Source of the DNA: Escherichia coli
Lineage (GTDB): Bacteria; Pseudomonadota; Gammaproteobacteria; Enterobacterales; Enterobacteriaceae
Strand: one strand, 5' to 3'
Assembly: GCF_046105845.1 (NCBI RefSeq)
Contig: NZ_CP151004.1
DNA: 64,000 bases
Of this stretch, positions 13,901 through 16,900 are shown in pieces. The notes beneath the pieces were generated by a model. That model saw nothing but the letters and a program-made list of their open reading frames with translations, was not told the origin of the DNA and did no database searches. Position 1 is the stretch's first letter. Each line of letters starts with the position of its first letter. Made by a program: the position numbers and the translations under genes.

Positions 13901-16900
13901 CCTGATGCAGGGGTACACCATTGCCGTAATTATCATTCACCGTAATGTACAGAGCGGTATCCTCGCCTGCCAATTGTGTGTCATAAAGGGTATAAAGCGA
14001 GGTGAGATGTGCCGTAGACGCATCAGCGTCGACTTGAATGGACGTGCTAAGCGCGGAGCTACCATTTTCCAGGCTAGCTTCAATGGTATCCGGTCTCGCT
14101 CCTGTTTCTCTCGAGGAGCGGGTATTGGTATAAGTGACGGTAGCTTTACCCTGTTCGTTCGTCACGGCTTGGCCGCCGTTCGTCATTTCGGCAGATTTTG
14201 TTCTGCTGGTAAAGCTCACAGTCACACCTTTTACCGGAAAGCCATTATTATCAACGACTGTGGCGGTAATGACGCTGCCGGAGCTGTTCTGCGGGGTACC
14301 GGCGGTTATGCGGTCTGGCACAGCCGTCAACTCGATAATTTTTGCCGCCGCTGTGTCGCCAATAAAATGCACAGTTTTGTTGTCGCTGGCACCATTATTA
14401 GCCAGTGATGCAGTGACCGTCTGCTCACCAAAGGCAACGCCTGCGAGAGTGGCCTGCGCGATGCCAGACTCATTGGTATTACTCACTCCCGGGGTCAGGG
14501 TGAGTCCTGAAGAGGCTGAGCTGAATGTTACCGGAAGATTGTTCACCTCATTGTCGAACTGATCTTTAACCGTTGCAGTTAGCGTTGCGTTATCGACGCC
14601 ATTACCTGTGATCTCATCTTTTGACATCTGCAGGACAACCTGAGCCGAGGTTTTGTCCGCCACAAACGTTACCGGCTGCGAATCACTGGTATTGTTATTA
14701 CCCAGCGTTGCGGTAACCGTATGCGTGCCCGCTTTTTTGCCTTTGAGGGTGACATGCGCTTCGCCATTGGCCTGAGTGATGGCAATACCGTTACTTTCGA
14801 GGGTAAAGTTTGCCGCAACGTCCTGTGGCATGGTGAAGTTCACCGTTATTCCCGCCACCGGATGATTCGACGGATCTTTCACCGTTGCCGTAAGCTGCAC
14901 GCTGTCACTGTTATTCGTCACCACCTGTTGAGCAGGGATGTTCAGGGTGACCTGCGCGTTGCTGGTATCGGGCGCAATATTGACTGTTGTCGTATAGCCA
15001 TTGCCGTTAAGCAGTGTGGCTTCGACTGTATGAACACCCAAAACCGTGCCCTTAAGGGTAACTTCAGCAATACCACTGTCGTTAGTATTGCTCGTGCTCT
15101 GACTAAGTTGAGTATCAGCCGGGTTAGTACTAAAGGTGACCGGTAGATCTTTTACTACGTTATCAAAAGGATCTTTCACTGTTGCTGTCAGCGTTGTCTC
15201 ATCCACGCCATTCCCAATGATTTCCGCTTTCGATGTTTGCAGAACGACAACTGCACTGTCCTTATCCGCCACGAATGTGACTGGCTGCGCATCGCTGGCA
15301 TTATTGTTACCCAGCGTTGCGGTAACCGTATGCGTGCCCGCTTTTTTGCCTTTGAGCGTGACATGCGCTTCGCCATTGGCCTGAGTGATGGCAATACCGT
15401 TATTTTCAAGGGTAAAGTTTGCCGCCACGTCCTGTGGCATGGTGAAGTTCACCGTTATTCCCGCCACCGGATGATTCGACGGATCTTTCACCGTCGCCGT
15501 CAGCTGCACGCTGTCACTGTTATTCGTCACCACCTGTTGAGCAGGGATATTCAGCGTGACTAGCGCGTTGCTGGCATCGGGCGCAATATTGACTGTCTTC
15601 GTATCTCTGTTGCCGTTAAGCAGTATGGCTTCGGCTGTATGAACACCCAAAACCGTGCCCTTAAGGGTAACTTCAGCAACACCACTGTCGTTAGTATTGC
15701 TCGTGCTCTGACTAAGTTGAGTATCAGCCGGGTTAGTACTGAAGGTGACCGGTAGATCTTTTACTACGTTATCAAAAGGATCTTTCACTGTTGCTGTCAG
15801 CGTTGTCTCATCCACGCCATTCCCAATGATTTCCGCTTTCGATGTTTGCAGAACGACAACCGCGCTGTTCTTATCCGCCACGAATGTGACGGGTTGCGCA
15901 TCGCTGGCATTATTGTTACCCAGCGTTGCGGTAACCGTATGCGTGCCCGCTTTTTTGCCTTTGAGGGTCACATGCGCTTCGCCATTGGCCTGAGTGATGG
16001 CAATACCGTTATTTTCAAGGGTAAAGTTTGCCGCCACGTCCTGTGGCATGGTGAAGTTCACCGTTATTCCCGCCACCGGATGATTCGACGGATCTTTCAC
16101 CGTCGCCGTCAGCTGCACGCTGTCACTGTTATTCGTCACCACCTGTTGAGCAGGGATATTCAGCGTGACTAGCGCGTTGCTGGCATCGGGCGCAATATTG
16201 ACTGTCTTCGTATCTCTGTTGCCGTTAAGCAGTATGGCTTCGGCTGTATGAACACCCAAAACCGTGCCCTTAAGGGTAACTTCAGCAATACCGTTCTCAT
16301 TAGTATTACGCGCGTTCAGACTTAGTTGCGTGTCTGCGGGAGAGGTGCGGAAGACTACTGACAGATTTTTAACCACGTTATCAAAAGGATCTTTCACTGT
16401 TGCTGTCAGAGTCGTCTCATCCACGCCATTCCCAATGATTTCCGCTTTCGATGTTTGTAGAACGACAACCGCTCTGTCTTTATCCGCCACAAACGTCATT
16501 GGCTGTGCATCGCTGACATTGCTGTTAGCCAGACGAGCCGTGATCATATGCGTGCCCGCTAACGTGCCGGTCAGGGAGGCGATGGCAACCCCGTTACTAT
16601 CCGTCATGCCTTTTCCGCCGTTGCTAATCGAGAACCGACTTGCGACGTCGTTTGGCACAGTGAAGGTGATTTCTTTATCTTTTAGTGGGTTGCCATTTTT
16701 ATCCTGCAAGGTTGCAGTCATATGTTGCGGAGCTGTGTTGGTGACGGTGATATCACCTGAAGGCACACTGAGGGTCAGGGCAGCAGTACTTTGATCACCG
16801 ATAAAATTCACCTGTTGATTGGCCTGGGAACCAGAGCTCACAGAGGCCGTAACCCTATAATCACCGTTTTTTAAACTGGTCAGCGTAGCTGTGGCGATCC

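Follow-up and report, generated by a model that had tools for sequence, protein, structure and literature searches.

Length variation in YeeJ, an adhesin of Escherichia coli, is already known from published variants and from a listing among the Periscope Proteins. Martinez-Gil et al. (2017) described two length variants, from strains MG1655 and UMN026, that differ by a 906 bp "repeated section" presented as "three additional Big domains" (PMC5595812). Here we describe the yeeJ gene found on a 64,000 nt stretch of the E. coli contig NZ_CP151004.1 (assembly GCF_046105845.1; hereafter the window), which carries, in the same gene, locus and passenger region as the published variants, a tandem array of three 609 bp units. 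Comparison with other alleles makes it very probable that this is a variable stalk array, in which an old two-unit state has gained and lost whole units through unequal recombination. The window allele corresponds to the two-unit type with one further unit; the earlier study recognised two variants only, and did not include the 609 bp unit, one- and three-unit alleles, hybrid units or the microhomology junction of the K-12 allele (PMC5595812).

The class to which this array is closest, the Periscope Proteins, was defined by Whelan et al. 2021 (PMC8201768), and the Whelan 2022 review names inverse autotransporters as Gram-negative members (PMC9704523). Periscope Proteins are single-chain surface proteins whose tandem stalk domains resemble one another in DNA sequence and differ in number among related strains, as in YeeJ, and homologous recombination has been proposed as the cause, as it is here for the YeeJ array. 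Row 53 of the Periscope dataset lists YeeJ of E. coli with 3 proteins, a minrep of 2 and a maxrep of 3 (PMC8201768), and its entry gives a repeat length of 119 amino acids (aa), whereas the real period is 203 aa, or two domains. At yeeJ we found both whole-domain tandem repeats of high DNA identity (89-94%, against about 42% for the neighbouring sequence) and a unit number that varies between close strains (1-3 units within flanks at least 99.9% identical). YeeJ differs from the class in that the variable array holds merely 6 of some 18-20 stalk domains, in its small range (1-3 units), in a unit identity that falls near the bottom of the range of psim.dna (about 0.82-0.997) in the dataset rows covered, and in having no known length-dependent phenotype.

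Two other systems offer partial parallels. In the B-region of the staphylococcal SasG/Aap proteins the unit also consists of two different domains, G5 and E (128 aa in the Periscope dataset entry), so that near-identical domains are never adjacent; the same holds for YeeJ, where two domain types, A and B, alternate at 36% identity. The folds are unrelated, and SasG has a Gram-positive sortase anchor, many more units (3-13) and a higher DNA identity of about 0.98. The inverse autotransporter YrIlm / YrInv of Yersinia ruckeri, an invasin-like molecule (Wrobel et al. 2018, as cited in PMC6714894), has almost identical immunoglobulin-like (Ig) repeats in the passenger, which are discussed as giving rise to length changes in evolution and to errors of assembly; it belongs to a different species and a different gene.

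Anatomy of the repeat array

The array and the domains bordering it are as follows (window coordinates).

14650-16476, minus strand: tandem array of three 609 bp units, 609 aa, six Big_1 domains with A and B alternating
15868-16476, minus strand: unit 1 when counted in the coding direction; first-type (U1), with the first unit of every two- and three-copy allele as its orthologue
15259-15867, minus strand: unit 2, hybrid according to diagnostic-site painting and a breakpoint scan
14650-15258, minus strand: unit 3; last-type (U2), with the last units of the other alleles as its orthologues
15970-16288: exact 319 bp repeat of 15361-15679, the longest in-register exact run
16477-16779, minus strand: Ig domain before the array, a B-type copy of old divergence (aa identity with domain B, 44%)
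14347-14649, minus strand: Ig domain after the array, an A-type copy of old divergence (aa identity with domain A, 52%)

An earlier reading of the window, made from its letters without database searches (the original prediction), had placed three near-identical copies with a period of exactly 609 bp at 14650-16475. The period was borne out by a repeat search, which returned copies spaced 609, 609 and 609 bp, and by the lag-609 profile, and the limits proved correct to within 1 nt. Lag-609 identity is 87-100% from about 14653 to 15870 (+609), with the exception of one 71% window over the diagnostic patch described below, and drops to 25-50% outside the array (54-66% at 14392-14650). Tandem Repeats Finder, whose longest period is 500, gave nothing on the array. 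Each unit encodes 203 aa and gives two Big_1 matches, six in the array, which agrees with the predicted size of roughly two Ig-like domains; domains A and B of one unit are about 36% identical to each other. With the protein of one unit as query, phmmer found no match among PDB sequences.

Between units, 36 of the 609 positions differ for 14650-15258 versus 15259-15867, 39 for 15259-15867 versus 15868-16476, and 67 for 14650-15258 versus 15868-16476, corresponding to DNA identities of 94.1, 93.6 and 89.0%; at the protein level the pairwise identities are 189, 191 and 180 of 203 residues. Adjacent 609 bp frames are 42-44% identical to the units. The claim that the copies stand far above their neighbours thus stood, while near-identity did not: the copies are only 89-94% identical, and their mismatches cluster in patches instead of being scattered. 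The 319 bp exact repeat is a substrate for further homologous exchange. Since the preceding domain is B-like (44%) and the following one A-like (52%), the array lies within an older, decayed alternation of A and B domains; the fourth copy returned by the repeat search, at 62%, falls in the preceding Ig domain.

First-type, last-type and hybrid units

The window allele was compared with 23 alleles fetched from complete genomes (24 in total), units being aligned in register between two conserved 300 bp anchors. Units group by position rather than by allele: first units differ from one another at 4-30 sites, last units are likewise alike, and first and last units are separated by 55-77 differing sites in the distance matrix. 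The fixed differences between the two types amount to 36 sites, all of which are located in two patches, at unit offsets 102-187 and 561-608 in the coding direction, and between these patches first- and last-type units are near-identical. Judged from these alignments, first- and last-type units represent two old, position-specific types, and the copies of the window are not three fresh duplicates. Because the types are kept by position across all allele families, the original duplication is old.

The middle unit of the window is composed of both types. Offsets 0-187 are last-type at 24 of 24 diagnostic sites, and offsets 242-608 are first-type at 12 of 12 sites (patch 561-608); the middle unit of strain PCN033 displays the same pattern, with 24/24 last-type sites followed by 12/12 first-type sites. 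Compared with the best chimera of the third and first units of its own allele (u3|u1) the window hybrid shows 9 mismatches, versus 36 and 39 for the pure units, and the breakpoint scan places the exchange in a short interval.

15634-15683, minus strand: inferred crossover interval in the hybrid unit of the window (unit offsets 184-233)

One-unit alleles show the reciprocal pattern, first-type and then last-type. By its composition the middle unit is the junction product expected of an unequal crossover in a two-copy parent.

Patch 102-187 corresponds to 86 bp at 15680-15765, with counterparts in the other units, where 24 fixed differences between first-type and last-type units alter 12 of about 29 domain A residues (NLSVVFRTSPADTQLSLNARNTNENGIAEV against DLPVTFSTNPADTQLSQSTSNTNDSGVAEV). 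The approximately 370 bp that follow are almost identical between units. Next to this homogenised tract, the patch may represent either a piece of the surface that is functionally distinct and protected, or sequence imported from another source.

Allele series, breakpoints and recency

Between the conserved anchors the alleles contain 3, 2 or 1 units, or 312 bp in MG1655. This agrees with the original prediction that the stalk lengthens or shortens in whole units. The one-, two- and three-unit alleles are all in frame, 609 bp being a multiple of 3. The best-fit breakpoints of the hybrid units, expressed as unit offsets, are the following.

Window, 3 units: 184-233
GF60, 3 units: 188-233
GF43, 3 units: 263-369
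PCN033, 3 units: 373-441
G1/2, LH50-c and ES5, 3 units: 313-531
VCSW7, 3 units: 578-585
NCTC9038, 3 units: 188-222
E700025, 1 unit: 574-577
A10, 1 unit: 0-63
ES7, 1 unit: about 188-233

For two of the hybrid units the parents can be read from the alignment without a single mismatch: the middle unit of VCSW7 equals the u2|u1 chimera of AST215 (0/609 mismatches), with which it also shares an identical first unit, and the middle unit of NCTC9038 equals its own u3|u1 (0/609). Strain Res13-Lact-ER07-18 carries two units in the order hybrid, last-type, an arrangement that points to a secondary contraction from a three-unit allele. One allele family is found with three units in PCN033, two in UID2309220033 and one in E700025, and within it the flank upstream of the array differs at only 2-5 of 3119 nt and the downstream flank at 0-1 of 3674 nt, i.e. 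the flanks are at least 99.9% identical. As the breakpoints differ, hybrids match their parents at 609/609 positions and flanks are at least 99.9% identical, whole-unit turnover is recurrent and partly recent; the estimate is at least three expansions and about four contractions of independent origin, with no exact count claimed. Of the two possibilities in the original prediction, recent duplication or ongoing unequal recombination, recombination is therefore the one retained; the recent part comprises only the step from two to three units and the contractions, the duplication itself being old.

The part of yeeJ that follows the array (10983-14649) falls into two deep allele classes, four loci against the rest, which differ at about 530-545 of 3674 nt (roughly 15%), and the part before the array differs by merely 2-3% between alleles. 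Three-unit alleles are present in both of the diverged 3' classes, in genes of 8613/8616 nt and of 8592 nt. yeeJ is thus clearly a mosaic gene, in which the 3' classes have recombined with different 5' parts and unit numbers.

Unit number in complete genomes

A single-unit query gave matches in 2910 of 5426 complete genomes, 1272 of which have at least one full unit, the remainder having the half match of the K-12 type. The matches total 4193, with a mean of about 2.0 units per unit-bearing genome and a maximum of 4, in one genome; insertion sequence (IS) elements that split the array inflate such per-genome counts, and two suspected four-unit arrays proved to be two-unit arrays carrying IS insertions. 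The copy number is not fixed in the population, the finding that the original prediction had said would count against it; instead, 1, 2 or 3 units are found among complete genomes. At least 28 complete E. coli genomes have three units, E700025, A10 and ES7 have one, and W444, with a single match, probably represents a fourth one-unit allele. An even sample of 32 full-length loci comprised 21 of the K-12 type, 10 with two units and 1 with one unit.

Within clones the unit number is stable: three units are found in each of three O166:H15 genomes and two in every one of many O157:H7 genomes, and the K-12 derivatives without exception carry the short form. The locus is not hypervariable in the manner of a contingency locus, and a phase-variable contingency locus was rejected on the grounds that the changes are in frame and that members of a clone agree in copy number. 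The idea that a paralogue donated the extra copy was likewise rejected, unit matches being confined to yeeJ with the exception of 2 plasmid matches. In the search with the full-length protein, matches are ordered by the sum of their HMMER domain scores, which places two-unit proteins above closer three-unit ones; the top match of that search (P0001), considered as a close relative of the window allele, proved to be an ordinary two-unit allele.

The 2870/2879 aa three-unit protein is encoded on hundreds of public contigs. A collapse of the repeats in short-read assemblies, which the original prediction had regarded as frequent for such sequences, did not apply to the window allele: many contigs of 16-60 kb, which we take to be draft short-read assemblies, encode the full 2870/2879 aa. 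Many YeeJ fragments at contig ends exist in the databases.

In complete genomes yeeJ is often disrupted by insertion sequences, frameshifts or internal stops. Among the loci of relatives, one carries IS5, that of NCTC9040 carries IS3 and IS66, and that of O157:H7 strain SS TX 754-1 carries IS1203 inside a repeat unit. Roughly 2000 of the 5426 genomes have only a yeeJ remnant of about 2.1 kb, which matches the flank query with about 36% coverage and about 85% identity and is annotated as barrel and Ig-like fragments (e.g. in S88, UM146, ST131 and ST95 strains); this suggests that these lineages have either lost a large internal part of the gene or carry another short allele.

Origin of the short K-12 allele

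In MG1655 the 312 bp between the anchors begin as a first unit (offsets 0 to about 79-90) and continue as a last unit (from offset about 376 onward). The two parts are out of register by 297 bp, or one Ig domain, and meet inside an 11 bp motif, GTGAAAGATCC, common to domains A and B. The two copies involved are found in the window as follows.

16387-16397, minus strand: upstream microhomology copy GTGAAAGATCC, coding for VKDP
14872-14882, minus strand: downstream microhomology copy GTGAAAGATCC, 1515 bp from the upstream copy, with a 297 bp shift within the unit

The best parent of the K-12 allele is the two-unit allele of USMARC-49610, which has K-12-like flanks (8 mismatches). Compared with two-unit alleles K-12 has 906 bp less, equal to the published MG1655/UMN026 difference and composed of 609 + 297 bp; the published step therefore separates two-unit alleles (7983-8007 nt, e.g. 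in O55:H7 and O157:H7) from the chimeric single domain of K-12. Compared with the window, K-12 has 1515 bp less in the array (2.5 units, five Ig domains) and 21 bp less in the 3' part, which accounts for its 2358 aa against 2870 aa. The original prediction had attributed the greater length of the window allele to extra units; the allele is indeed longer, although K-12 is shorter by 2.5 units and through a microhomology deletion. The K-12 allele is derived, the product of an out-of-register deletion at the 11 bp GTGAAAGATCC that left one chimeric Ig domain, with its head from the first A domain and its tail from the last B domain.

Mechanism of unit gain and loss

In the mechanism that we favour, the ancestral and widespread state is an array of two units, one first-type and one last-type. 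The last unit of one copy would mispair with the first unit of another, either a sister copy or an incoming one, and an exchange in the near-identical tract would produce a three-unit allele with a middle unit that is last-type at its 5' side and first-type at its 3' side, the reciprocal product being a one-unit allele; in the window allele this exchange would have taken place at unit offsets 184-233. Each in-register event adds or removes 203 aa (two Ig domains), while preserving the reading frame and the domain boundaries.

Several observations weigh against an array that gains and loses units by recombination, or limit how far it can be taken. The uniformity of clones indicates that the turnover rate is not high, and changes in unit number are known from comparisons between genomes rather than from cultures or single clones. 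The matches listed for a flank-only query, the per-genome unit matches listed and the lengths of the best 120 proteins showed no allele of four or more units. The three-unit array of the window is known from assembled sequence alone. Later gene conversion between units can shift apparent breakpoints, which makes the number of events a lower-bound estimate. Finally, in the only functional test in the literature the K-12 variant and the longer UMN026 variant formed biofilm equally (PMC5595812).

The enzymology is the part of this mechanism that we infer rather than observe. In-register changes could instead have arisen during replication without RecA, through slipped misalignment or through a template switch from one sister strand to the other, in place of RecA-mediated unequal crossover. 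A whole-unit change with a hybrid junction unit is the outcome under either mechanism, and the K-12 junction at an 11 bp microhomology indicates that short-homology, probably RecA-independent events do take place in the array. Deletion of tandem repeats in alpha C, a protein from group B streptococci, is reportedly recA-independent. The in-register exchanges, however, fall in long exactly identical tracts, up to 319 bp in the window array and 42-178 bp in two-unit alleles, which are ample for RecA. Sequence cannot separate the two mechanisms, and slippage is a possible, though rather unlikely, source of the in-register changes.

It is doubtful that the length of the stalk is under selection, with unit numbers (0.5, 1, 2, 3) tuned to the thickness of the O-antigen or capsule or to immune pressure, and with the A-B period being kept as it lets recombination alter the length while avoiding near-identical neighbours that risk misfolding. 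The two-domain period can be interpreted as keeping near-identical Ig domains from being neighbours, as in the G5-E units of SasG. Invasin rods rise about 3.6 nm per Ig domain; with two domains per unit, the stalk would therefore change in steps of roughly 7 nm per unit, and the K-12 and window alleles would differ by about 18 nm.

Still less likely, the three-, two- and one-unit forms might be a few ancient, stable alleles spread by ordinary allelic recombination, without ongoing turnover. Such alleles would fit the uniform unit number within clones, the identical 2870/2879 aa proteins on hundreds of contigs, and the mosaic structure of the gene, with two 3' classes about 15% apart and 5' parts differing by 2-3%. 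They are difficult to reconcile with several distinct breakpoints for expansions as well as for contractions, with two hybrid units that match their predicted parents at 609/609, with 3-, 2- and 1-unit alleles within flanks at least 99.9% identical, and with the presence of three-unit alleles in both diverged 3' classes.

The third copy of the window is most improbable as an assembly artefact, i.e. a mis-expanded repeat: although repeats of such size can be mis-assembled and the window allele shares only 98.4% identity with its nearest counterpart in the database, the same three-unit architecture and gene length recur in at least 28 independent complete genomes, the reading frame is intact, and the middle unit has a hybrid pattern of its own, 36 and 39 sites away from its neighbours, which a spurious copy would not have.

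The yeeJ gene and its neighbourhood

The gene is located in a long minus-strand open reading frame (ORF), 10983-19670, and its main features are listed below.

10983-19595, minus strand: yeeJ coding sequence, 2870 aa from the ATG at 19595 (ORF list and translation)
18339-19166, minus strand: inverse-autotransporter beta-barrel IAT_beta, aa 144-419 (Pfam PF11924, 376.9 bits, full-length profile match)
19908-19983, minus strand: tRNA-Asn at the asnT position, upstream neighbour of yeeJ, as in MG1655

The name yeeJ was given on the basis of the IAT_beta barrel, the Big_1 domains and the MG1655-like neighbourhood, and by these features the gene is an orthologue of yeeJ that encodes an inverse autotransporter (type Ve) adhesin. 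Elsewhere the window reaches identities of up to 98.8% with complete genomes, which identifies it as E. coli DNA. The same 8613 nt coding sequence is annotated in RefSeq relatives. Alternative starts lie 27 nt upstream (2879 aa) and at 19538 (2851 aa), and the start is ambiguous within 19538-19670, databases giving 2879, 2870 or 2851 aa for one gene; the downstream start (MGIKLRR..., equal to 19538 here) is favoured by the current MG1655 annotation and by PMC5595812. The 5' 3.1 kb of the gene differs from K-12 at 68 positions.

Pfam identifies 18 Big_1/Invasin_D3 Ig-like stretches in the passenger (952 bits) and a C-terminal Invasin_D4 at aa 2678-2751, the latter with 28.6 bits barely above the cut-off of 27. 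The Pfam scan at E<=0.001 reported no LysM in the YeeJ of the window; the LysM of YeeJ was assigned via Prosite (PMC5595812), and RefSeq labels the equivalent YeeJ fragment in NCTC9040 "LysM domain-containing protein". From this architecture and the published surface exposure (PMC5595812), the YeeJ of the window is expected to form a monomeric, surface-anchored, rod-like stalk that carries a functional domain at its distal end. Two antisense ORFs inside yeeJ, 13833-14408 (plus strand, 191 aa) and 16264-16794 (plus strand, 176 aa, overlapping the edge of the array), are probably chance ORFs of a long gene.

The neighbours of yeeJ match the order in MG1655: shiA, yeeL / tRNA-Asn, mtfA, tRNA-Ser. 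The glycosyltransferase family 9 gene yeeL (350 aa) is an intact ORF at 9359-10411 on the plus strand and is intact in most of the relatives fetched, and in MG1655 it is annotated as a pseudogene. The window contains four tRNA-Asn (GTT) genes, at 352-427, 2760-2835, 4584-4659 and 19908-19983, presumably the asnT/U/V/W cluster region that is usual in E. coli; the one beside yeeJ carries no inserted island. In 7 loci of relatives the tRNA-Ser (CGA) is adjoined by a tyrosine recombinase/integrase, often frameshifted, and by prophage genes. This island is absent from the window, where chromosomal ORFs lie directly beyond 20975-21064.

Significance

The YeeJ array is ordinary for its protein class, and since the Periscope class and the membership of YeeJ are published and no phenotype is tied to its length, it opens no new question. 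The additions made here are incremental: the true 609 bp two-domain unit, the one-unit alleles, the anatomy of the hybrids with their recurrent breakpoints, and the microhomology origin of the K-12 allele. For practical purposes, typing of yeeJ by PCR or gene length has to allow for four or more size classes instead of two, and anchors for copy-number calls are best placed outside 14347-16779. The K-12 YeeJ used in surface-display work is a derived form with a chimeric Ig domain. The importance of the array is modest, as a clean and fully resolved example of how the stalk of a Gram-negative adhesin changes in length.

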